Origin: Eledone cirrhosa | Taxonomy: Eukaryota | Length of the DNA stretch: 64,000 nt | Direction of reading: 5' to 3' | Assembly: GCA_964016885.1 (NCBI GenBank) | Contig: OZ024743.1 | Location: forward strand, 103,788,001-103,852,000 | Shown: positions 871 to 63,559 of the stretch, in pieces | How positions within the stretch are numbered: position 1 is the first letter of the stretch | Layout of the letters: the number at the start of each line of letters is the position of its first letter | Notes under the pieces: model-generated | Databases searched by the model: none | The model's input: the letters and a program-made list of their open reading frames with translations, nothing else | What the model was told of the DNA's origin: nothing | Program-made: the position numbers and the translations under genes

Positions 871-2546
871 CATTAAATATACCACTCGCCATCGATAATG
901 ACTTGGTAGTGCGTGCAGTGCTGGACTTACCTAAAAGAAAAATAATCTATAGCTTAGGGTCACACCATTTTTTTTTTTTATATATTTTAATTTTATCATT
1001 AGATTTCATTCTTTAACACAAAATCCACAAAAATGATATCTATATATACTATTTAGTCTTTATCATCAACCTTAATATGAAAAATAAGAATAATTATGTG
1101 TAATAATTTAAAGATGTTTTTCCCGAAAATTTTTAGAGAGGGTCTCAAATTTCATATAGCTAGAGGGTCTTAGCGGGTGAAAGTCCCGGGGTGAACGCCT
1201 TATGCCGTTGCAGTGGAAAAGCAAGCAGTGGACCTCTCCCACGTGGCCAAATGGAACATCCGGGATGGGATATCTGAATGAAGACAGTTACTTTTTTTTC
1301 AACCCGAAAGAGGAAAATGTGGAATAGAATTCTAAGTGTATGAGTGTGTTGGGCGGATAAACACAACAAACAACGCGCCTCATTTTAACTAACATATATG
1401 TATGTCTATATATAGATAAATAAATATAAATAAATATGTATATTGGTTCGTCAAGTATGAAATTTGTAGAAATTTGGGGTTTTTTCTACAAATTTCATAT
1501 TTACGTATACATTCAGGGCCGGATTTAATGAGGGACAAAAGGGTGCAATTGCCCCGAACCCCCTGCAGTGGTGTGGCGCACCAACGACGGCCGTAGCAAT
1601 TTATTTGTGCTCTCAGCTGGGCTTTTTAGTTTTAGGATGGTTAGAATTTTTTAATTTAATACCTGTATTTATAACTTTTCAGTTCCAATTACTTGCGCCA
1701 AGCTAAATTTGATATCTAAAATTGGGGAGTTTGCTGTGTATTCTAAAATTGGAGAGTTTGCTGTGTATTCGATTTTTTTCAAACTTTACATATGTATTAC
1801 TTATGTTTCAGGGAGTGTTATGCACATAAAAAAAATTCAACTTTTTCATCCCCTAGGGCCCACATTAGGTGAAAAACTGATTAACAAGGAAGGTTAATCA
1901 TACTTAAAGGTATAAATTTAATTTTTACCCAAACTAGCCATGCGTGGTTACACGCTTGTAAAAATTATCTCCTGTGATTATTCATGTATATTTATATGTT
2001 AATCAATTTCTAGTTATTATAAAATGCTCGGATATATCTTTGAGCTTATTTCCAGGCGATATGGCGCACGCCGTTATGGCATGACACCCACAATTTCGAT
2101 TTGGATTAAATTCATTTAATTTATCTTAATTTTGGATATAGATATATATATACGGCTCCTTAATTGTAGAGCTATTTCTGTTGAAGGGAATTTGACTGCT
2201 ATTTCTAGTTGTCGAATACCTATTCACGCCACTGAAACGAAGCTGCTGTGATGTGTAGACACAACACGTGGTAGCGGCCAGATGAGGAATTGAACTCGCT
2301 GTGTGAGCATGGATAGCTGGACATTATTCTTCCTTGTTGACAATCCAATAATATCCACTTTCCGTGACTTACCATCTGATTAATTGGTGAAATATATTTC
2401 TTTAATGGGATATATACAAGGAAGGGTAATCATACTTAAAGGTATAAATTTAATTATTACCCAAACTAGCCATGCGTGGTTACACGCTTGTAAAAATTAT
2501 CTCCTGTGATTATTCATGTATATTTATATGTTAATCAATTTCTAGT

Positions 2547-3085: not shown

Positions 3086-5712
3086 TAATATTAATAAATG
3101 GAAACTATCTTTATAAAACCATATTTATTTTATTATACATATTTCAAGGGTACCAAAATTTTTGGTACGCACTCATCAGATAAAATATAAAAGTTGTTTT
3201 ACAGATAGTGACATATTCAAAACTAGAACTTATCGTTTTGAATTATGTTTGAATAGTGAAGAATAACTTCAAATCATAGGATGAATATGCTAATGAGGAT
3301 ACCGTTAAAATTGAAAAGGGTCGTTATATTTAGATGCTAGGTAAATTTAAATAATTTTAGAATATGATGCTTTACATAGAGCTGGTTACATGAATAAAAT
3401 TAAATACATAGATAGCAATAGCATGCAAAATCATCCTAAAATTTACTATAATAATAATAATAAGCAAATTAACCTAAATAGTAAATCAAACAAAATAGAA
3501 ATATTATTTGGTACTCTCCTCCAATCTCATTAGGAATTAAAACACTTTTAGCAAACCTATCCTTCAAAGCATTAGATAAGTGTTTTCCTAAATTCCATAG
3601 ATACCACTCTATTTTTAACAGGCATACTATCAAACTATCTTACTCTACTACTATGAGCATAGCACAAAATATTAATAGAATTAATAATAGAAACTTAAAA
3701 TTAAACCCAACCTAAATAAACCATAATAACAATAATAATATTACTAATAACAATACTAATAATAATCGTACCGTTCCTATAGACAACAACTCTAGAAAAT
3801 GTAACTGTAGAAACGAATTAAGTTGCCCTTTACAGAATAATTGTCTAGATAAAAACTTAGTATACAAATGCACAGTAAAAACTAGAAATAAATTATTTAA
3901 CTATATAGGAACCACTTCTACAAAATTTAAGGAATGCTGGTATAATCACAAACACACATTTAATAGATCGGACAAAAAAATTCTCAACATCACTTTCACA
4001 CCTAATTCGGTACTTAAAAGACAATAATATTGACTATTCAATCTCTTGGAGAACGATTTCGAAAGCACCCGCATACCGAAATAAGAATTTGTCATTTATG
4101 TATTGAAGAAATATTTCACATAATTACCAATCAAAACGCTATAAACAAAAGAAAGAATTATTTAACTCTTGCAGGCATCGTCAGTCTAAGACTATTGGAA
4201 GTATCTATAATCTATAGAAAATATGATATATTGCCTCTATATCTCACCTGTTTACATTTTATATGTATTCGCCGTGCTTTGTAGTGTTTTTTTGTGATGT
4301 TTTTAAATGATATTTTTTAATGTATTTTTTCGTGATGGTTTTAATGATGTTTTCGAATATACTTTGGACGTCTGTAGAATTTTGTTCCTAATAGACTCTA
4401 TAGGCATTGTAAATCCATACAAATACTTAATATCATTTAACTTATACATAGATATAGGTAATATTATCAGAATACATACAAAATTGTTATCATGGAAAGT
4501 ATGTAATATATGATACTATAAAATCATATATAAAATAATTTTTACATATATCGTAATTAGAATATTATTTTGAAGTAAATTCTAGAATAAGCGGTAAATA
4601 TAATTTAACTATTTAAACTAAGAAATATTACAGTTATCTTTTCCTTCGAAATGTAACACGCTTACGCATTTTTTCTAAATAACAGTTAAACTTTACATAA
4701 ATATTAAAATTTATAAGAATTTCGTAAATTTATTCCTGTCTTGATGCAACTATTGAATATACAAAATAGTGTACATCTATAATAAAATAGAACTACTTCC
4801 ATTTTCTTAAAACATATATTGAAAATGTAAACAAATCTTCATATATAAAAAATATTTAAATTATCTATCTATTAAAAAAAAACATATATACTCACCAAAA
4901 TTATTTATATATAAATAACTTGTCGTAATATAATAAAATAAAATATACTTGCAACTCTAATCTTCATAAAATATACTTATAAATATTATCTCTATAATAT
5001 TAAAACACACCATTAGAATTGACCCAATCGTATATATGAATACAATATATCTCTCACGTTTTAAATTAATATTCTCCCACTTTAACACATTTATAATTCT
5101 CACATTATATTATAAATACTCCCAAAATATATAATTAAATAATTAAATATAATTATTTCACTCTTTCTACACCCTCACAAATATTCTCCATACAATTTAT
5201 ATACATTTATTAATATAAATAGTCTATTTTTAACTCTAATATACTTTTTTCTTATATTATTTCCTTAAATTTCTTCCACCCTAAGAATTGTTTCTACTTT
5301 TGGTACATGGCCAGCAATTACCCAGTACATTACTGGTACTTTATTTTATCGACCCTGTAAGGATGAAAGGGAAAGTTATCCTCGGCGGGTAATAATAACC
5401 TCTATCTCCTCTTCCCTTAAAAAATAATCCGAATAATTATTTAAATTTACCTAGCGTCTAAAATATAACGATCTTTTTCAATTTAAACGGTATCCTCATT
5501 AGCATATTCATCCTATGATTTGAAGTTATTCTTCACTATTCAAACATAATTCAAAACGATAAGTTCTAGTTTTGAATATGTCACTATCTCTAAAACAACT
5601 TTTATATTTTATCTGATGAGTGCGTACCAAAAATGTTGGTATCCTTGAAATATATATAATAAAATAAATATGGTTTTATAAAGATAGTTTCCATTTATTA
5701 ATATTATTGATA
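3075..5712 (+). mobile_element. Degenerate Penelope-like element with inverted pLTRs
   Basis: GIY-YIG relic CNCRNELSCPLQNNCLDKNLVYKCTV...YIGTT (about 3800-4200); 3075-3360 is an inverted copy of 5435-5712; HHR motif in each arm. Confidence 0.8.
5605..5666 (+). ncRNA. Minimal type I hammerhead ribozyme (family A); mirror copy 3126-3187 (-)
   Basis: tattttat CTGATGA [gtacca/tggtat hairpin] GAAA tatata TA ataaaata. Confidence 0.8.
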
Positions 5713-6219
5713 TTATACTCTAGAAGGATCTGTAGAGTGCTTCTAGCCTGTAATAAACTAAATTTGTTGAATAACCAACAAATTAAATAACTTATTGCTT
5801 ATATATATATATATATATAGGGTGTCCCTAAAAATGTATACACACTTCAACAGCATTCTAATAATGTGTATACTTTTCTTTGGGAGGGGGGACATTATGT
5901 GTATGAGGGGAGGGGGGCTGCGCACGTGTGTGTGTGTGTGTACAACCCAAAGAAAAGAGAAAGCAATTAATATGTTGAGATCTTTACTAATTTACATATT
6001 CCGTGTACTTTCATAGACGTTAATATGTCTAACTACATCAAATTCTTGTCAATTTTTACAAAACACCTGACAGAGATAGACAGATAATTGTGCTACGTTT
6101 TATGACATGTTTTCTATTATGTATTCGTCTGCTCAATAGTTTATGTGTATGTGAATTTGATTTATATTGTGCAGTTTATATGTTTCGTTTATTAACACTT
6201 AGTGTTTGAGTAGATAACG

Positions 6220-13835: not shown

Positions 13836-15310
13836 CTACCCACCCGGGTCGTTATGGGGTTTGAGGGCGAGGTAAATCCTACGCAATCTGTGTTTGCATG
13901 CTGTTACCAGTTCGTCTTTCTTGTTTAGGAGTTGGTCCTTCGAAAACAGCATTTGTAATGTTTCCTCCGAGCATAAGTTACACGGACAGCGTCCTCCCGT
14001 GTAAGAGTTAGCTCTGGACAGTAAGCTCCAAGTGAGATTGTAGGTTATATTATTATCTTGGAGGTCCCAGATGTGGCCCGAAAGTGTAGTGGCATGTCGC
14101 CGGACCGGGTTTCGGAAAGTATGTCTGTGTTGGTAGAGCCGGGACTTGAAGTCACACGCGGTTAATCCTATATAAGCTTTGTTGGAGGTGTCCGTCCTCA
14201 CGTTGCACTGGTAGATCACGTTACGTTCTCGGCATTTGTTGTTGAGGGGGCACGTAGATCTATCAGCAGTTACACCTCCTGGTCGGCTCTCCACTGATGT
14301 CTAGGTTATTTTTTCCATAGGGGTTGAGCTTTTTGTTGTTTGAGGAGACGATGTTTTGTGCGAAATTAGGTCTGGTGCTGTAGGAGAGTTTGATGGTGTT
14401 TTTGTTGATTTTGTTGTGGTAGCGGTGTTGTAGTGGGAAGTGTTTTTCGAGGAGTCTAAAGAAGATTTTCCCGATAGGTGTTGCCACCTCGGAATTATGG
14501 GGAGGATTGAACCACGTTACGTTGCGTGAGCGGCGGTGTCACCTACTGATTCCGCTAAGGGAAGCTGGATAAAAGGATATTTCCTCCCGGAAGCCACTCC
14601 GCTTGAGAGTCCGGTTGTAATGAGGCGCGTGTTCGTCGAATATCTGCTCATTAGCGAACAAACGAGATATGCGGAGGGAGATGTTTTTAACCAGGTTATT
14701 GGTGATGTTTCTAGGATGGTTAGAGCGGCGGTGGATGTAGTGCAGGTTGTCGTTTGGTTTCCTGTATGGGTAGTACAGATCATTTTCGAGGTAAGGGTAA
14801 CGTCCAGGAAATTGACTCGGGTTAGGGACGTTTGTAGGGTGATTTTAAATCCCCAGTCCCGGAAGAAGTTGATTAGTTGTTTACGGACCAGGTCTGTACT
14901 ACTGGGGTTGTACCCTATGAGGGTGAGGAGCCCATCATCCCGATACAATCCACCGCCGAATGCAGGAAACATTTCGGTGAGTTTAAATAGTAGGAATAAT
15001 CCTATAAGATCTGTGACCTCGGCCGAATCCGTCGCGCCCATACTGACGTCGAAGGGGGAGTCGGGAGCTCTCTTTATCCACTTGGGGTTTTCGAAAAGTA
15101 GGAATGTCTTCCTGGCGTGGAGAATGATATTTCTTTCCTGGTCAGTGATGGGCGCGAGTGTTTCGGCAAAGTCCAAGGCGGTTCTAAGGAGCGGTAAGGT
15201 AATAGATGCATAGTAACTCTCTATGTCAAACTGGATAAATTTTGCGTCTCATTTGTCCTCCATATTCCTGAACCGTGAAATTACTTCCTGGGCGCTGACC
15301 CATAGGCTGA
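13836..15310 (-). pseudogene. PLE reverse transcriptase + GIY-YIG endonuclease (frameshifted)
   Basis: FIQFDIESYY, FDVSMGA, GGGLYRDD, VNFLDVT; CNC..CPL..C...VIYQC...YIGLT...CNLCSEE. Confidence 0.93.
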
Positions 15311-16167
15311 GTCTCACGGGAGGACGCCGTCCGTATAACTTATGCTCGGAGGAAACATTACAAATGGTGTTTTCGAAGGACCAACTCCTAAACAAGAAAG
15401 ACGAACTGGTAACCGCATGCAAACACAGATTGCGTAGGACTTACCTCGCCCTCAAACCTCATAACGACCCGAGTGGGTAGACAAGGGCTGATACCCCCCC
15501 CACACACACACATACACTTGCCGAATAAGTTAGGGGAAACCCCAGATTACATAGCTAGATGTATCTCTTTTCTTTTCCTCTTTGTCTTCTTCTTCCTCCT
15601 GTCTCATCCTATCACTTCCTTCCACCCCTATTTTTTTCCTCGTCTGCCTTTCCCCTTTCGCCTACCCCGATGCAGCCAATCGGGCCTCTGTAGCATCAGT
15701 CCCCCCACCCCTGTAATTTTAGAATTGGCCGAATACGTTTTACTAACTACTTATAGCAGATGTGTTAAACCCCTTTAATTTTGTTTCAGTTTTGTTACTC
15801 CTCAATTTCTACAAGTTTTTTCTACTCTCAACTTATTAACCTGTAATTGTAAGATAGCATTGTGGGTTTTTTTAATTCATTTCTCACTATCTAATTTTAT
15901 ATATTTTTTTATTTATTTCTATTATCTTTTATAGTCTCCCACTCTCATTCGATTTACCTATCCTATAACCTCCCTCCTCCACTTCATACACTATCCTTAG
16001 AATCTGGTGTATACATATCATTTTCAACGCTTGACCGTTCCACTCACTCCCCTATTGTTCTGCGGGCAAGTTCAGCCACCCTTACCTCCCAGCAAATGCC
16101 ATGATAGACTTATTTGTGTTTACAACAAATTTTAACCAATCCTCTTGACAACTACAATCTTCCCATA

Positions 16168-37291: not shown

Positions 37292-38020
37292 TATTGGATG
37301 TTCAGATGATGGCGATAGCAGATAAGGACTGCTATGTAAATAGAGTGTTTAATTGTATGCGAATTACGTTCTACTGTACACGCAGATAATATTGCCAAGC
37401 ATTTGCCTTAGTTTGCTGTTAGAATGTTAACTTCCAGTCACAACAAAGTCAAACACTTTATATAGAAATGATTTCTTCGGGACTAGAACTGTTCCATTCC
37501 TTCTGTTCTTCAGAAAGACACTTTATTTCACGTTACTCCAGTTCGCTCTAGTTTAACAATGATAATAATAACTGTTTCTACTTTTGGCACAAGGCCAGCA
37601 ATTAACCAGTACATTACTGGTACTTTATTCTATCGACCCCGTAAGGATGAAAGGCAAAGTTAACCTCGACGGGATTTGAACTCAGACTGTAAAGGGACGT
37701 AACTATGCTAGAAACAAGTTATTTTACTTATTCATTTCATTGTTTTACGATCGTTTCGGAGGGTTGATCATATTGATATATTGACTGATCTATACCAGTT
37801 AGAGCTGTAAACTATCAGGCATAATATATAGGTTCGGTCATATCGTCTACTTCGGAAACAATGAATTTAGAATCTTTATTGGTAGTATATAAACAGGGTG
37901 GATATAAGAACAGACGTACTATACAAATATATATTCCAGATTGCCTCCTTTGATTGATAAAGATAGTGGAAGGAGTGTTCTAGGACCTTGGCACCACTAA
38001 CATTGGAGGAGTAAGTGGAC

Positions 38021-40398: not shown

Positions 40399-41480
40399 TA
40401 TATATAATGTACACATAAACACAGCCACATACAGACACATATATTTATGCTTCTATTCATTAATAATGAAAATATCATTAGAAATGCAAACGAAATGTAG
40501 AAATTGAAATGTATAACACCTTTTTGCTCTTAAACATAATCATTTTTTTATTGAAAATTTACAACTGAGTTCACAGTAAACCATTCCTGTTGCGATTCAA
40601 TAGTATTAAAATAACATTTATTTCATGGAAATATATCTAACAGGTAAGAGACACCGTAATCACATCCCTTACTCTACTCACTACTGAGCAAAGTTTACAA
40701 ATACATCATGATAAAAGATTAAGGCATTTTCTGCAATGGAACGCGAAACTGAAAATACAATAACACACTGACGAGAAACAAACAGAATAGAAACATTTTC
40801 GTGAAGCGAATATCAAAATCTGCTCCAAACATGCTGAACATTGTCATCGATATCAGAAGTTGTATGTGCATCATATCATGGCTAATAGGTAAGCTTACGT
40901 TTAACCATGCCACGATACACATACAACATCTGATAATGAGGCTAAGGCGTGTCTTTATCAACAATATCTATGAAACTGACAGCTTCTTGAATTTACTACT
41001 AATACCATCTATATATATATATATGGGTTGAACAATGAAAACAAAAAAGTCGAGTGTTTCATTAGTTCATTGTTTTACGATCGTTTCAAAAGGTTGAATG
41101 AGCCATGATAATATCAAGAGCAGTTACGTAACTTCATATTAACCTAGTCAGATGTAGTAGTTAGTAGTTAGTAGTTGACTAACAAACTATCCTCTTGCAT
41201 TATCTGTGTTAACTGCCGAATGTATTTTAATTTTGTTTTAATTTTGTTTTAATTTGAAATTTGATTTTGAATTTGAATTGCTATACAGAAATAATATAGT
41301 ATAATATATGTCACTCCACTGTACATCAATATATATATATGTATCTGTATGTCTCTTGCGTTGGAAAGGAGGTCAATTACGTGTACAAACATTGAAAAAT
41401 GCTCCGAAGAATCCAAGCGTAGGTTTGGATGAAACAATTGTAAGTGAATAAATGCTTTGAACATAGCTTTGATTCTTGTG

Positions 41481-42428: not shown

Positions 42429-42547
42429 GTTTACAGCCATATCATGTTGAAACCATCGGTTCTCGTTCAATTACCGCCGTTAAACAACGTCGAGCCAGCT
42501 AGTGTTTCCATGGGTGACCACATGGAAAACATAGGTGCTGGAAAACA
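42429..42547 (+). pseudogene. Degenerate 5S rRNA copy (possible 5S-derived SINE head)
   Basis: GTTTACAGCCATATCATGTTGAAACCATCGGTTCTCGTTC...GGGTGACC...GGTGCTG aligns to metazoan 5S with many substitutions. Confidence 0.85.
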
Positions 42548-44488: not shown

Positions 44489-44699
44489 AGAAATTAGTTT
44501 CATGCATAGCTGTATACAGATATGTATTGAAATATATATATATATGTATATGTATATATATATGTGATTTTTATTTATTTGTATTTATTATTACTAGCGT
44601 GGAAGAATGGTGATGATGATGATGATGATATATATATAGACAAACACTACTGGAATTTCAGAAGGAATACTGGACCAGAAATACATATAGTAATCTATT

Positions 44700-45650
44700 C
44701 GACATTACTATGGGCTCTAGTGATTCTGCCCAAATTACCGATCTTGTGGGCCTCTTTCTTCTATTTAACATAAATTCTTCTTTTCCCCACCTTTAAGGTG
44801 GTTTATATCGTGATGACTCCTCTTCTTTCCACTAACCTTAGCCTATCAGAAATTTAAAAAAAATAAAAAACTTATTAGAACTTTCCTCAAAGACTATTAT
44901 AGTCTCACTATTACATTTGAAAACACCAGTAAAATAGTTAATTTCCTAGATATAACTTTAGACTTATCTACGGGTATCTACCAACCTTACCATAAACCTA
45001 ACCAAAACTTACATTACATACACTCACAATCCAATCACCCTAGATCTATCCTTAAAAACCTAGCATATAATATCTTACTCAGAATTTCTAACCTTTCATC
45101 TAACCAGGATGTATTCGATAAAAATGCGCCCTTTTATAACGAAGCTTTAGCTAGTAGAGGCCACAAAAACAAATTAGTCTATATACCTTGCACCAATAAT
45201 ACTTCAAGCATACAACCCAATATTACCAACAAACACCAAATGAAAAACAGACACCTAAATGCCACTCACACTACACCCAAAAATACCAACCTAAAACTTA
45301 ATTTATCTACCTCTTCTCACATAAAATATAATAACTTTCAAAAAACCTTTCATCCTAATACTCCAATATACCGTTAATAACATTACTAACAAAATTCCTA
45401 ATAATCAAACTAAAACACCTAAATCAGTTAATCTAACTAAACATATGTATAATAAATTCACTAATACTAACTCTCTTAGTAAACATCGTGATACTTCGTA
45501 TAAATATAAAAAAACAACATCGAAACCGTAATAGACGAGTTACTTGGTATAATGCTCCATTTAATCTACAAATTAAAGATAATATCCCTAAAAAAGTGTT
45601 TACTATCCTAGAGAAAAACTTCCCGCCAAACCATAAATACCATCAAATTT

Positions 45651-45655
<5 letters not shown>
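44700..45655 (+). pseudogene. PLE reverse transcriptase fragment
   Basis: GGLYRDD, VNFLDITLDL, YHKPNQ..YIHSQSNHP, RRVTWYNAPFN. Confidence 0.85.
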
Positions 45656-55340: not shown

Positions 55341-56590
55341 GTAATAATAATAAATTTGAAGACTAAAATCCAAAGAGGGCTCGATAAGGATAAATATATA
55401 TCAAATATATAAGAACCGTAGAGCATACACTGGGAGATCCTAGCTAGGGCTAGATCGTATAACGGAAATAAAAGACCATGTGACCTCTGCGCCGCTGAGG
55501 CTCTGGAAATACTCTACGCCACAGACCACATCTAAAACAAAAAATCTGAGGCAATTTCGGCTTGTAAACATAAATTGCACAAAACTTTCCTGTATTACAG
55601 CCCCACGTTATACCCTAACAGATAGTACGATCTATACGTGGATATTTTACGTCTTGATATGGGAGCTAAGAATATGTTTTGTTTATACCATTACTTATTT
55701 TATATTTGATTGTTTATGTTATGGCTTATAATTTTATATATTCTGGTACATATGGTTTGGCTATGTGTATACGGGAGTTTTGCGTCTGTGTGAGTTTGCT
55801 GGTTCGTACGTTTGTGGGTGTGTGTATATGTGTACTTCATGTTTTGGTTGACTTACGTCTCCGAACATCCGTGTATTTACATGTAGGTATGTGTGTGCGC
55901 TTGTTATATACGTATTTATTTATTTATATACGTTTATATAATTATTTATTTATTTGTATACACACATACACACACACATATTTATATGTGCATCGTTTTG
56001 TATACCTATGGTAAGTGCTTTGCGTATGCTTGTGTATGTACGTATTTGTTTGCGTGTATGTATTTATTTATTTCTATTACTTCTGTATTGTATTTATTTA
56101 CTTTGTTCTTAACTCTGTAGCGGAGATTCATTCGGTCTCCTTGTTAGAATTTTAGTCTACAACTTCTGCTATACCATTTACGTGGTTTTGTCTTTGCGTG
56201 CTATTGTTCTCGACGCTCCACATATGACGTATTATCCTCGTTTTTTTCGTTCATTGCTAGAGAACGTCTCTATGAACCACCTGAGAGAACATTAGTCTAC
56301 GACCTCTCTTATACCATAAACGTGGTTCTGTCTTTGCGCGTAATTGTTTTTCACCGCTCCTATTAATGACGTATTATATTCGTTTTTTCCCGTTCTTTGC
56401 CAGCGAACGTTTCCACGAACCAAAGTATCGCCTTCCTGTCTTCCTCTGGTTGCAACGTTTTTTGAAATATCCACTTCTGCGTTTACAGATTGACTTTGTT
56501 AGTTTCAGAAGATCCCGTTAAGGGTGAAAGCAGCGATTCTTTGCTTAAACTTTAATGTTATTTTAATAAATATATATATATATATATATA

Positions 56591-56883
56591 TACGATATTA
56601 AATAAATGGAAACTATATTTATAAAACCATATTTATTTCACTATATATATTTCAGGGATATCGTATTAAAAATATGGTATGCCTTCATCAGACAAAATAC
56701 AATATAAACTTTTTAAATGGAAGTTGAAGTGTAAGGTATGTCAAATCTATCTATTTATAAGACTGTTTATATTGTATTTTGTCTGATGAAGGCATACCAT
56801 ATTTTTAATATGATATCCCTGAAATATATATAGTGAAATAAATATGGTTTTATAAATATAGTTTCCATTTATTTAATATCGTA
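56591..56883. mobile_element. Hairpin element with family A HHR in both arms (56634-56699 -, 56775-56840 +)
   Basis: About 118-bp arms, about 56-bp spacer; homologous to the pLTR at 5600-5712. Confidence 0.85.
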
Positions 56884-56966
56884 AATATACTCCAAATACT
56901 TGTTGAGTGCTTTTATATCAGTTATAAATATTTACTCGTTGTAACCCAACAATTTAAATAAAACTT

Positions 56967-58022: not shown

Positions 58023-58063
<41 letters not shown>

Positions 58064-58070
<7 letters not shown>

Positions 58071-60704
58071 AATAAGGGCGCTGCGGAGTTTCAAATGGGT
58101 TACATATGAAAAAAGTTTGTCCTTCATCAGTGATCTTCCAACTATCATAGGCATTTCATCGCTTTAAAGACCATATACCTCCGGTTGGTGCGAGCAACGG
58201 CTAAAAAAAGTCGTTGGGACACGTAAATAAAGGGGACGCGAGGGTAAACAAACAAAATGGTGAGGCAACAGAAAGTGAGGAAGAAGGAGACAAGTCCTAG
58301 ATTTCTTTGAATTTAAGTTCGGTGAAATCGTGAACGAGAGAATAAAGACCATCAAACCTGGTTGAAATGTGAGCAAGGAAGGAATTTCGCACAGGTCTAA
58401 CGGGAGGAAGAAGGGGTCTGGTCTGCGAATTCGGTAAACATAAGTTCTGTGAAATCGTAGACGAGAGAGAAAAAATTCCGACCAGCTTGGCCGAGAATGT
58501 GAGAGAAAAGAGTTACTCACAGGTCAAACGGGAAGAAAGAGGAGGAGGAGGAGAGGTAGTGACAGAGAATGAGTGAGTGAAGGGTGAGGAAGAGGCTAAC
58601 AGAGAGAGAGACTGCTAGAAAGGGTAAAGATACATAGAACGAAAAAGACGGTGTAGCAGCAGAGGAAAAAATATGTGTAAATATGATAATAAGGGCGTTG
58701 CAGAGTTGCAAATGGGTTACATATGAAAAAGTTTGTCCTTCATCAGTGATCTTCCAACTATCATAGGCATTTCATCGCTTTAAAGACCATATACCTCCGG
58801 TTGGTGCGAGCAACGGCTAAAAAAGTCGTTGGGACACGTAAATAAAGGGGACGCGAGGGTAAACAAACAAAATGGTGAGGCAACAGAAAGTGAGGAAGAA
58901 GGAGACAAGTCCCTGATTTCTATGAATTTAAGTTCGGTGAAATTGTGAACGAGAGAATAAAGACCATCAAACCTGGTTGAAATGTGAGCAAGGAAGGAAT
59001 TTCGCACAGGTCTAACGGGAAGAAAGAGGAGGAGGAGGAGGAGAGGTAGTGACAGAGAATGAGTGAGTGAAGGGTGAGGTGAGGAAGAGGCTAACAGAGA
59101 GAGAGACTGCTAGAAAGGGTAAAGATACATAGAACGAAAAAGACGGTGTAGCAGCAGAGGAAAAAATATGTGTAAATATGATAATAAGGGCGCTGCGGAG
59201 TTACAAATGGGTTCCATATGAAAAAAGTTTGTCCTTCATCAGTGATCTTCCAACTATCATAGGCATTTCATCGCTTTAAAGACCATATACCTCCGGTTGG
59301 TGCGAGCAACGGCTAAAAAAAGTCGTTGGGACACGTAAATAAAGGGGACGCGAGGGTAAACAAACAAAATGGTGAGGCAACAGAAAGTGAGGAAGAAGGA
59401 GACAAGTCCCAGATTTCTAATAATTTAAGTTCGGTGAAATCGTGAACGAGAGAATAAAGACCATCAAACCTGGTTGAAATGTGAGCAAGGAAGGAATTTC
59501 GCACAGGTCTAACGGGAAGAAAGAGGAGGAGGAGGAGGAGAGGTAGTGACAGAGAATGAGTGAGTGAAGGGTGAGGTGAGGAAGAGGCTAACAGAGAGAG
59601 AGACTGCTAGAAAGGGTAAAGATACATAGAACGAAAAAGACGGTGTAGCAGCAGAGGAAAAAATATGTGTAAATATGATAATAAGGGCGCTGCGGAGTTA
59701 CAAATGGGTTCCATATGAAAAAAGTTTGTCCTTCATCAGTGATCTTCCAACTATCATAGGCATTTCATCGCTTTAAAGACCATATACCTCCGGTTGGTGC
59801 GAGCAACGGCTAAAAAAGTCGTTGGGACACGTAAATAAAGGGGACGCGAGGGTAAACAAACAAAATGGTGAGGCAACAGAAAGTGAGGAAGAAGGAGACA
59901 AGTCCCAGATTTCTAATAATTTAAGTTCGGTGAAATCGTGAACGAGAGAATAAAGACCATCAAACCTGGTTGAAATGTGAGCAAGGAAGGAATTTCGCAC
60001 AGGTCTAACGGGAAGAAAGAGGAGGAGGAGGAAAGGTAGTGACAGAGAATGAGTGAGTGAAGGGTGAGGTGAGGAAGAGGCTAACAGAGAGAGAGACTGC
60101 TAGAAAGGGTAAAGATACATAGAACGAAAAAGACGGTGTAGCAGCAGAGGAAAAAATATGTGTAAATATGATAATAAGGGCGCTGCGGAGTTACAAATGG
60201 GTTCCATATGAAAAAAGTTTGTCCTTCATCAGTGATCTTCCAACTATCATAGGCATTTCATCGCTTTAAAGACCATATACCTCCGGTTGGTGCGAGCAAC
60301 GGCTAAAAAAAGTCGTTGGGACACGTAAATAAAGGGGACGCGAGGGTAAACAAACAAAATGGTGAGGCAACAGAAAGTGAGGAAGAAGGAGACAAGTCCC
60401 AGATTTCTAATAATTTAAGTTCGGTGAAATCGTGAACGAGAGAATAAAGACCATCAAACCTGGTTGAAATGTGAGCAAGGAAGGAATTTCGCACAGGTCT
60501 AACGGGAGGAAGAAGGGGTCTGGTCTGCGAATTCGGTAAACATAAGTTCTGTGAAATCGTAGACGACCCTCGCGTCCCCTTTATTTACGTGTCCCAACGA
60601 CTTTTTTTTAGCCGTTGCACGCACCAACCGGAGGTATATGGTCTTTAAAGCGATGAAATGCCTATGATAGTTGGAAGATCACTGATGAAGGACAAACTTT
60701 TTTC

Positions 60705-60708
<4 letters not shown>
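58064..60708. repeat. Five tandem units (617, 495, 497, 493 bp, then partial) ending in an inverted segment, flanked by (TA)n
   Basis: Units start near 58064, 58681, 59176, 59673 and 60166; 60564-60708 is inverted; diverged homologue at 35880-36140. Confidence 0.95.
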
Positions 60709-60743
<35 letters not shown>

Positions 60744-60813: not shown

Positions 60814-61208
60814 CAATCAAAAGGTTGTGAGTTCAATTCTCGGACCGGGTGATGTGTTGTTTCCTTGAGCAAGACACTTTATTTCACGTTGCTCCAGTTT
60901 ACTCAGCTGTAGAAATGAGTACCGGCCTGCCCGCCCACCAGTGGGATGGCGTTATCTTATGGCTTAAACAGTACGACGTGCTGTGACCAGCGGCGCCGAT
61001 TGGCGCCCGACAGACTGGTCGGTCAAGGGGATCAAGGTGATCTATATATATATATTGAGTTTGAAAGACCAAAGGTCATTATTGAAAGTCTCTGGATTGT
61101 GTATATGTTTGCATGTACATATGTATATGTAGATTTATATATATGTATACATAAGATATTTTCAATTGTACAAAATCCCTACCTAGGTATCTAATTGATA
61201 TGGCATAT

Positions 61209-61286
<78 letters not shown>

Positions 61287-61419
61287 TAGATAAATCTACC
61301 AAGAGTTTACGGTAGTGTCCAATCCGTATGAAGAACTCAATGTATTCCGGATATCATGGAAAGAAGAGATGTAATGAAAAACCACTTTCGGTGAAAGATA
61401 AACGGTATACAGAGTCAAG

Positions 61420-61829
61420 ATAAAATATTAAACAAATAATGAATAAACAATTCCTTATATTAAACAAAAAAAGTTCATTATTTAACGATCGTTTCTAGGG
61501 TATATATGTGTTATAATTGGTATGCATATTCAACAGATCTATGTACAAAATTATACAAAATTATACAAATTATCAAGATTAAATATACATACCTAACACA
61601 TATATACGCCGTCTTCAGAAATAATTATTTCTGAAGACGGCGTATATATGTGTTAGGTATGTATATTTAATCTTGATAATTTGTATAATTTTGTATAATT
61701 TTGTACATAGATCTGTTGAATATGCATACCAATTATAACACATATATACCCTAGAAACGATCGTTAAATAATGAACTTTTTTTGTTTAATATAAGGAATT
61801 GTTTATTCATTATTTGTTTAATATTTTAT
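61420..61829. repeat. Spacerless 410-bp palindrome
   Basis: Centre at 61624/61625; arms appear to be exact reverse complements by eye. Confidence 0.95.
61625..61771 (+). ncRNA. Type I HHR with very long stem II (family F); mirror copy 61478-61624 (-)
   Basis: ttattt CTGAAGA ..gtatatatgtgtta...taacacatatatac.. GAAAC gatc GTT aaataa. Confidence 0.85.
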
Positions 61830-61939
61830 ATATATATATATATATATATTCACAACATTCACCACTAATTGATTTGACAGATGTCTTTAACCCATTGGTA
61901 CCAAACATTATTTGGTCAGTAGTTCATGTGTATGTGTAA

Positions 61940-62001
<62 letters not shown>

Positions 62002-63559
62002 TAGCAGAAGTACCGGGTGTAAGTCGACCTTTGCTCTGTTGTTAAAATGTGTGAAAGTTACTTCCCGCGCATCACAGGTGCAAAAACATTCGAACCTCAA
62101 GGGAAAAAAACAGAGGTTAGTAGACGCAGGTGTGTAATTGAGCATAAATAATTGTTTCTACTTTAGGCACAAGGCCAGCAATTACCCAGTTCATTACTGG
62201 TAAATTGAGCATAAATAATGGATCAATTGTAGATTCACAGTCTATCGTTGAAATTGTTCTTTGCACGACTGACGGAAGTCAAATTCACTTGAAATTGAAT
62301 TTTCAGTTGATTTTTAAAGCAGAGTGAAAAAGTCGATATTTCACAGTTTTTTTCTTTTTACAATTTTCGCGCTCACGTGTGCAGAAGAAGAAATAAAAGG
62401 GACTTTATCTGAACCGCGGCATAATGGCGAGTCTTTTGCGACAGTTTTCAAGAAAATCGGACGTTCCTGTAAAAAGTTTTCCCATGTGCAACTTTGCCTT
62501 GTTTTTTGCGCAAAGTCGAACCCCCGCTTCAGTTTTATTGATTTTTTACATGAACGCGTGACCTCTGAAGTAGATTTGAGTAGCTAAAAACCTGTCCCGG
62601 TAAATTTGCTATAGGTGAAAAAAGGTTGATCAAAATTGTGTCTAGGGTTATTGCCCTTTGCAACAGCCTCAACGTGTCTTCAAGTATGGTTTGTTAATTT
62701 GTTATGGAACTAAATCGACTTTCGTCAAATCGGACCGAGGAAACAATGTTTCCATTTGTCTTTCTAGCTGGTGTACCCGGTTTCACTCGGGGTTATAAGG
62801 CGCTGGATTTAAACGGGTCTGCGCTAAATTCCAGCAGGATGCTTTAACCGAAATAAATGAAGAACAAACGTTTCTTTTTGTGCTCCAATCTGTGATATTG
62901 GTATTTTGAAAAAAATAGTCCACAAACATCCATGGAGCATGTGTAACGCATGTATCAGGTTATGAGAAAAAGGGTTTTCGATTCTCCATTCATAAAATTG
63001 CACGCAAATAAACCGGGATTTTAAGGCACTGCCCAATTCATAGCTGAAAGGTAAGAATCAAGTGGAATAATGTTTTGCGACATTGTCAAATGTACAACCG
63101 TACAAAAGCAAAGGATATAGCCATTGAAACCTAGGTAGACCAAAGAATTTGTGGGGTTGTATATCAGAGGATTGTTTTCATTGTGATTCGTGTCTAGCCT
63201 ACAAAGTGAAGTTAGATGATTGTAGTCGGTGTTGTATCAATAAAAAATAAAAGCATACGGAAGACTGAACACTTACGAATTAAGTGAAAATCACGTTGAT
63301 ATTCCTATCGGAGCAACATGTGCCGAAAAACCTGACGCACTGTTGTGTCAATATTGAAATCGTAGAAATTGCGAATCCCGACCTCTAAGATGTAATGGAT
63401 AGGCCTTGGAGGTGAAGAGGAAGAATTAGTATAATTGTTTTGCTGAACATGTTGACCATTAATTTAAATAGACTTACGCAGCATCATCGTGCGGTTTTGT
63501 TGTTTATGGCCTAGAATGAGGGCCGGTTAAACGCGGCAGAGAAATAAGCCATGCTGATG

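Follow-up and report, generated by a model that had tools for sequence, protein, structure and literature searches.

A palindromic stub of a Penelope-like element in Eledone cirrhosa: two cDNAs probably joined head to head at the start of one RNA

Introduction

A perfect 410-bp palindrome is found in a 64,000-nucleotide stretch of the Eledone cirrhosa genome (the window, by which we mean the whole stretch analysed), and its centre falls at a hammerhead-like motif. What turns an element back on itself at this particular place? The original prediction, made from the sequence of the window, proposed that a cDNA snapped back at the ribozyme during integration. Our analysis favours another origin. 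The window contains the stub of a Penelope-like element in a (TA)n target, most probably produced when two cDNAs, each primed separately on a single RNA, reached the probably capped start of that RNA and became linked there head to head.

Results

The palindrome and the insertion that carries it

The palindrome consists of two arms of 205 nt (61420-61624 and 61625-61829) that are 100% complementary and have no spacer, exactly as predicted, and 61420-61829 is the sole perfect non-microsatellite palindrome with arms longer than 15 nt within the 64-kb window. Its extent as a feature had been given too small, as a 135-nt tail extends the left arm to 61285. The whole insertion therefore measures 545 bp (61285-61829) and lies between two (TA)n runs recognized from the sequence, the target on the left side at 61218-61283 and that on the right side, written (AT)n, at 61830-61849.

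Mapping to a reference copy of the family shows how the insertion is built. The left arm (61420-61625, minus strand) covers the pseudo-LTR from +1, the inferred first transcribed base, to the unit end at position 0 and runs on into the tail (61285-61419, minus strand), which corresponds to unit positions 1-135, the stretch between two putative priming sites; the tail differs from the reference copy by one mismatch at 61381, and one base at 61284 is unmatched. The right arm (61624-61829, plus strand) also covers the pseudo-LTR from +1 to position 0 and abuts the (AT)n directly. The head-to-head junction lies at 61624-61625, a 2-nt AT microhomology common to both arms, with the inferred +1 at 61624 on the plus strand and at 61625 on the minus strand. 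The stub is protein-less and contains no ORF. Reads and contigs from two further individuals, compared over 60850-62300, cover the arms and the tail, not the apex or the microsatellite flanks. Taken singly, the locus is ordinary and has no evident function.

Several other elements occur in the window. A second head-to-head inverted repeat beside (TA)n, with arms of 125 nt (98%) and a 55-nt spacer, is found at 56585-56889; a CTGATGA core is present in each arm, and the repeat is likely a stub left by a different family with a hammerhead. Pieces of related Penelope-like ORFs lie at 44638-45655 (plus strand, 77-90% amino-acid identity) and, with 37-51% identity, at 13857-15326 (minus strand), 15286-15462, 3503-3961 and 55431-55604 (all plus strand). 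A sister family, whose stem I is UUCAUUGUUU/AAACAAUGAA and whose site is GUA, has left decayed hammerhead motifs on the minus strand at 37736-37870 and 41064-41087. A tandem of units of about 495 bp with an inverted piece of 105-109 nt (58054-60455 and 60603-60711) is possibly retrozyme-like; its CTGATGA box lies on the minus strand in the units and on the plus strand in the inverted piece. A 5S rRNA-like copy (68 bits) occupies 42429-42546 on the plus strand.

The element family and its protein

Judged by its sequence, the palindrome is the stub of a young Penelope-like element. A search of the 3.0-Gb genome with the 205-nt arm gave 574 candidates, of which 40 were scored, and 44 of the 45 listed matches show 100% identity. 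The family copies are tandem units of 6559 bp (6.56 kb) with one ORF on the hammerhead strand, and full-length copies hold an intact ORF of 813 aa with a reverse transcriptase (RT) together with GIY-YIG at the C-terminus. The recent insertion that had been proposed is thus upheld by the identical listed matches and by source copies with intact ORFs; the identity of the two arms, from which it had been argued, says little about age, since a single template gave rise to both.

The 813-aa protein contains ITMG, YRDD and VYK...YIG motifs. Pfam returned no RT or GIY-YIG match for the 813-aa query and weak GIY-YIG matches in five of 22 aligned relatives (best E 0.0037), and a PDB sequence search with the ORF gave nothing useful. 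Motifs of the Hydra clade were found as RWR at 37 and DKT at 115 (among 118 relatives, DKT occurs in 96, DKG in 9, RWK in 43 and RWR in 29), together with a CxCX5C linker (CNCRNKTNC at 673), a CxxC (CRLC at 771) and a CxH (CNH at 799). The endonuclease core has two cysteines 8 residues apart, as read without alignment to reference sequences, and a lysine presumably takes the position of the second histidine of the CCHH motif. On these motifs the element fits the description of the Hydra clade in the accessible part of PMC8557442.

Pseudo-LTRs arranged in tandem and inverted head to head were observed in 15 mapped stretches and in 99 sampled insertions, and the hammerhead motif sits in the pseudo-LTR, sense to the ORF. 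A 17-mer from the hammerhead core occurs 3388 times genome-wide, with 1487 occurrences extending exactly 12 nt upstream of +1; this pattern does not capture a second subfamily, in which an upstream base is variant. In the unit (L032:1-7000), about 3.8 kb of microsatellite-rich sequence, copied faithfully from insertion to insertion, separates the ORF from the pseudo-LTR. A non-LTR retrozyme was considered and rejected, the repeat unit being 6.56 kb long and coding and the stub being an inverted pair, not a tandem.

The hammerhead-like motif

The original prediction that both strands encode the ribozyme is confirmed insofar as each arm has a type I hammerhead-like motif that reads outward (61624-61775 on the plus strand, from sequence and fold prediction, and its mirror copy at 61474-61625 on the minus strand). 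On the plus strand the motif comprises the 5' strand of stem I (61624-61630), CUGAAGA (61631-61637), the stem II domain (61638-61753), GAAA (61754-61757), stem III with a GAUC loop (61757-61764), U17 (61765), the predicted cut (61765/61766) and the 3' strand of stem I (61766-61775). CUGANGA and GAAA boxes, an NUH site and stems I-III are all present, and stem I has 10 bp in intact copies (UUCAUUAUUU/AAAUAAUGAA). The stem II domain has the predicted length of about 116 nt (116 nt from CTGAAGA to GAAA) and forms one long hairpin in fold prediction (z -6.6, 0 of 200 shuffles). Stem III had been described as palindromic; the GAUC loop is so, while the 10-mer AACGAUCGUU includes A14 and the cleavage-site base, and stem III proper is 2 bp.

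The Rfam hammerhead models gave no match at the gathering score in the whole window or at E<=10 in 61200-62000, and matches to Rfam miRNA models, which are driven by the hairpin and lie below their gathering scores, were rejected. The G10.1-C11.1 pair that closes stem II is absent, with a C.A mismatch in 33 of 34 haplotypes. Within the family 97.3% of cells are paired; 11 pairs vary on one side and none on both, a covariation that is not above shuffles. The sister family has a two-sided change from A-U to G-C in stem I and the usual GUA site. Because position 17 is U and stem II has a C.A mismatch at its base, we predict low self-cleavage activity, and such minimal motifs cleave poorly and as dimers (PMC4209133, in the part available). 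As the original prediction held, a read-through transcript would form dsRNA: the long hairpin is predicted to form in preference to the ribozyme (-307 against -42 kcal/mol), so the ribozymes of the stub are unlikely to fold in such RNA. Splice-like sequences, AG/GTATGT (61654-61662) and TACATAG/ (61704-61712), lie inside stem II, and the AG/GT is not in all haplotypes.

Outer ends and the one-sided tail

The ends at which family copies meet (TA)n are fixed at two points, unit position 0 and +137. Genome-wide, exact patterns in (AT)n number 1560 for position-0 ends and 4311 for tail ends, which by these patterns is 2.8 tail ends to each position-0 end; the excess, which we count against our best explanation, would mean that the second priming often fails or that the pattern misses variants. 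At palindromic loci, one arm ends in (TA)n at 0 and the other enters the tail (32 of 32 distinct loci).

All insertion samples are the first places on contig C1 and not random draws, the partner-arm sample being 99 of the first 100 position-0 insertions listed. Among the partner arms of position-0 insertions (n=71), 48 end at +137, two at 136 and one at 139; of the remaining 20, eight extend beyond the retrieved sequence and 12 were placed elsewhere, mostly because chaining failed in microsatellite. About nine long arms were cut short in mapping by low complexity near unit 5800-5880 or similar, which leaves the count for the +1 zone described below unaffected. Position-0 ends on both sides were found in two of 28 long insertions (L185 and L233). 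The arms of L233 differ by 5 events, and it may be two insertions. The outer layout is the known inverted pseudo-LTR with a one-sided tail, the tail being longer here.

Inner ends and the junction hot spot

The apex had been placed at the 5' edge of the hammerhead, on the first base of stem I. Intact copies read ...TACTTCA before the apex, so stem I is 10 bp long and the centre falls inside its 5' strand. Both arms of the window match the element one base past the centre, to the A of TTCA+1TT, sharing the 2-nt AT, and the apex lies 142 nt before the predicted hammerhead cleavage site.

When the apices of other copies are mapped relative to the hammerhead, they are strongly non-random, as the original prediction implied. 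A head-to-head junction within 30 nt of the apex point occurs at no fewer than 418 loci (at least; the reversed control pattern gave 0). Position-0 arms end in the 15-nt zone at +1 in 30 of 99 cases against 0.23 expected over the unit (p 1e-54), and the same excess is seen among the 48 short position-0 arms alone (p 4e-23). The mode of the zone arms is at +1 (14 of 30), seven of the 30 match on to -2 or -3, and 12 of 60 tail arms also end in the zone (counted by script). Some arms (L222, L180 and L226) do not stop at +1 and continue into the unit before it, which shows that there are also other or longer templates. L189 probably belongs to the +1 zone as well and was missed. The +1 boundary is also present where an arm joins (AT)n directly or meets a truncated partner, and hence is not a product of the palindrome. 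In the sister family, one of five matches (L236) is a palindrome in which both arms end at the same +1 with a one-sided tail, and about a dozen of 46 matches are joined to (AT)n at +1.

Two sources of this boundary were tried and rejected. Hammerhead cleavage would cut 142 nt away, and the only sampled arm that starts at the hammerhead cut, L194, does so via 10-nt homology in stem I. A 3' splice site at +1 (compare the intron end in D. virilis, from the part of PMC4209133 consulted) is contradicted by the absence of AG before +1. A search for poly(A) ends at +1, that is, copies leaving the element right after CA, gave 0 matches.

Two arms, one template

The two arms of an insertion share a haplotype. 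Arm-to-arm differences average 0.47 events within against 5.6 between insertions for 32 stubs, and 0.25 within against 4.5 between for 28 long insertions, a sharing that would arise just as well if one arm had been copied from its partner or if the two had been homogenised later. Arm lengths are coupled (34 short-short, 29 long-long and six mixed pairs, n=69, p 7e-13), which is what two primings in a single pseudo-LTR of one RNA molecule would give. The longer arm can be on either side (17 against 8, with 26 equal, n=51), and long arms end at unrelated points. In eight of 60 tail-end insertions the arms do not overlap, a tail-only arm and a position-0 arm having no sequence in common. Given the unequal lengths, the unrelated ends and the non-overlapping arms, neither arm is a copy of its partner.

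This bears directly on snap-back, in which one cDNA would fold near stem I and be copied back, with the second end trimmed at position 0; self-priming of this kind was proposed for palindromes at inverted junctions by Arkhipova et al. 2013 (PMC3846280, in part). The shared haplotype agrees with it, as does a natural 5-bp inverted repeat around +1 (CTTCA ... TGAAG, 7-nt loop), and the junction that such a snap-back hairpin could make occurs at 54 loci and at four of the 32 distinct palindromic loci; these 54 junctions fit a +1 end with 1-nt microhomology as well. By eye, however, terminal bases are duplicated with 0-3 nt between them in 25 of 50 listed junctions (nine like that of the window, six two bases shorter on each side and ten with 1-3 added letters), and neither these nor the window's own junction can come from a single folded strand, which cannot duplicate terminal bases with at most 3 nt between. 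The non-overlapping class already excludes snap-back where it occurs, and the process would not explain why either arm may be longer, why long arms end at unrelated points or how one junction acquired an extra G on each arm. The duplicated bases, the non-overlapping arms and the cap-like G do not support snap-back at the ribozyme as the chief route, and we regard it as improbable.

The extra G and a probable capped start

In the first 100 of 1365 arms whose match to the element stops directly after +1, scored by eye, the next cDNA base is C in 24, A in 21 and T in 55. A C stands 0-2 nt after the +3 base in 460 matches; in the first 100 of these, also scored by eye, the C follows +1 in 82, +2 in two, +3 in three and lies elsewhere in 13. 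A template for the C is absent from the target or partner arm in 28 of the 82 cases at +1 (eight before (AT)n and 20 before a partner arm); 23 others could be a partner reaching -1, 16 could be partner-C microhomology and 15 were left unassigned. Direct joins to (AT)n have the extra C in three of 19 cases, against 21 G or C among 1387 letters (1.5%) of such flanks (p 0.003). One listed junction (C1:334411382) carries the extra G on both arms, and the junction of the window has none. In the sister family, where copies are few and decayed, the extra G was found in two of 46 matches.

An untemplated 5' G in L1 and SVA insertions has been attributed to copying of the cap (PMC3287187, as far as its available text goes). 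We infer from the sequences that the untemplated G before the A of TTCA+1TT is likewise the mark of a copied RNA cap, and +1 would then be the capped Pol II start of a transcript made from an internal promoter of the element. TTCATT around +1 fits what we take to be an initiator-type motif (BBCABW). The Penelope element of D. virilis has an internal TATA-less promoter in its pseudo-LTR region (PMC2377424, in part). An AATAAA is located 8 nt upstream of +1 in the family and 12 nt upstream in the sister family, and the poly(A) signal and start site may nearly coincide. In full-length copies, an AATAAA was also noted 9-14 nt upstream of +1 (e.g., L001 at about 1705-1725, minus strand).

The same AATAAA admits another reading in which two cDNAs are again joined and +1 is a processed RNA end, produced by CA cleavage after AATAAA and recapped, or an RT stop with a terminal C; some reverse transcriptases add C at template ends. 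This reading is disfavoured by the confinement of the C to one position (82 against 2 and 3), by the initiator-type TTCATT, by a boundary that includes the A, by a hammerhead cut 142 nt downstream at which only one sampled arm (L194) begins and, weakly since the protein does not prime on poly(A), by the zero matches for poly(A)-ended copies. It seems to us as doubtful as snap-back.

Alternatives at the level of DNA and assembly

Much less likely is that the outer ends are made on DNA by endonuclease resolution of an intermediate, with inversion by recombination or repair. Craig et al. 2021 (PMC8557442, in part) suggested resolution by the endonuclease as a source of the tail, whereas tail ends map to RT start sites in vitro (PMC11167929, in part). 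Such resolution leaves the extra G and the +1 hot spot without account, and 137 nt is long for a staggered cut. An assembly or library fold-back artefact is scarcely credible: perfect palindromes are a known type of chimera, and reads on the window locus fit either arm and skip the microsatellite flanks, yet the flanks are not mirrored, the tail is on one arm only, and the 418 loci have many different junction letters, each with its own matching haplotype.

Discussion

The reading that we prefer, two separately primed cDNAs joined at the start of one RNA, also explains why the apex lies at a ribozyme: the transcript likely begins in stem I, and that alone puts the apex there. Since both arms extend through the predicted hammerhead cut, the template RNA was uncleaved, and L194 is the only sampled arm that begins at the cut.

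The steps proposed are as follows. The element protein would nick both strands of (TA)n, and the two target 3' ends, each pairing through 2-3 nt of AT microhomology, would prime one at +137 and one at position 0. Priming in a downstream pseudo-LTR would give long arms, while priming in the pseudo-LTR nearest the cap would give cDNAs of only 206 and 343 nt, which would run off +1 and sometimes copy the cap. Where the cDNA from +137 displaces that from 0, a displacement that we assume, overlapping arms and a palindrome would result; where it stops before position 0, the arms would be non-overlapping. The two cDNA 3' ends would then anneal via AT and prime each other's second strand. For Penelope-like elements in general, we lean towards a programmed twin priming in which a dimer uses two fixed sites on one capped, uncleaved RNA and the cDNAs mutually prime their second strands.

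If this is true, inverted pseudo-LTR, one-sided tail and palindromic junction all follow from a single mechanism, and the stubs record the RNA start site and the cap in thousands of genomic copies. The base-level evidence speaks against antisense self-priming for most junctions and favours two separately primed cDNAs whose common template is a sense RNA, capped and uncleaved. Exact sites (+1, 0 and +137) and an intact young ORF can be named for an in vitro test, and hundreds of real perfect palindromes are seen to arise by such insertions in one animal genome.

Comparison with known systems

The layout, palindromic junctions included, is already in print. EN+ Penelope-like insertions, in the available portions of PMC8557442 and PMC3846280, share with those described here the partial tandems, a head-to-head inverted copy, a tail at one end, a hammerhead in the pseudo-LTR, microsatellite targets and palindromic inverted junctions. 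Their tails measure 30-40 bp (PMC8557442) against 137 nt here, and the inner ends pile up here at one base with an extra G, unlike in the parts of those two accounts consulted. The mechanism of EN+ insertion is left open or undefined in the text available of PMC8557442, and self-priming on an antisense template is given in that of PMC3846280. We found no paper that ties the palindromic junction to a capped start or twin priming in a search of mostly open-access literature.

The Hydra clade, as described in the accessible sections of PMC8557442, shares with this element the DKT, the CxCX5C linker, the CxxC and CxH near the C-terminus, the C-terminal GIY-YIG, the hammerhead and the (TA)n target, with RWR here in place of RWK. 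Units of that clade are generally below 3 kb whereas the unit here is 6.56 kb, which its long microsatellite-rich 3' region accounts for.

The motif resembles the minimal type I hammerheads described by Cervera and De la Pena 2014 (PMC4209133, in part) in its core boxes, in the extra base after A9, in a short palindromic stem III needing a dimer and in a long stem II. It differs from them in its 116-nt stem II domain, the C.A in place of G10.1-C11.1, the U at the cleavage position and a stem I of 10 bp. Hammerhead pairs on opposite strands 100-700 bp apart are described there for metazoan Penelope-like elements. In the stub of the window the two motifs read outward.

Twin priming of L1 uses two target-strand primers on one RNA and leaves an inversion joined by microhomology, its second site being variable and its arms non-overlapping. 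The insertions described here are alike in the two primers on one RNA and in the microhomology join, and the untemplated G at complete 5' ends of L1 (PMC3287187, in part) is a further likeness. They differ from L1 in a second site that is fixed and in the full overlap of most arms.

The closest comparison at the level of the protein is PAc, a Poseidon element of Anolis (Frangieh et al. 2024, PMC11167929, from the portion available), which in vitro cuts and extends both strands and is predicted to act as a dimer, with two internal start sites bounding the tail and uncleaved RNA as its template. That text takes up neither the inner junction nor a cap. The steps proposed above are in accord with this in vitro behaviour, and both systems have an AT-rich target, two starts that bound a tail and an uncleaved template. 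The starts of PAc lie close together inside the ORF, whereas those of the Eledone cirrhosa element lie upstream of the ORF and 137 nt apart.
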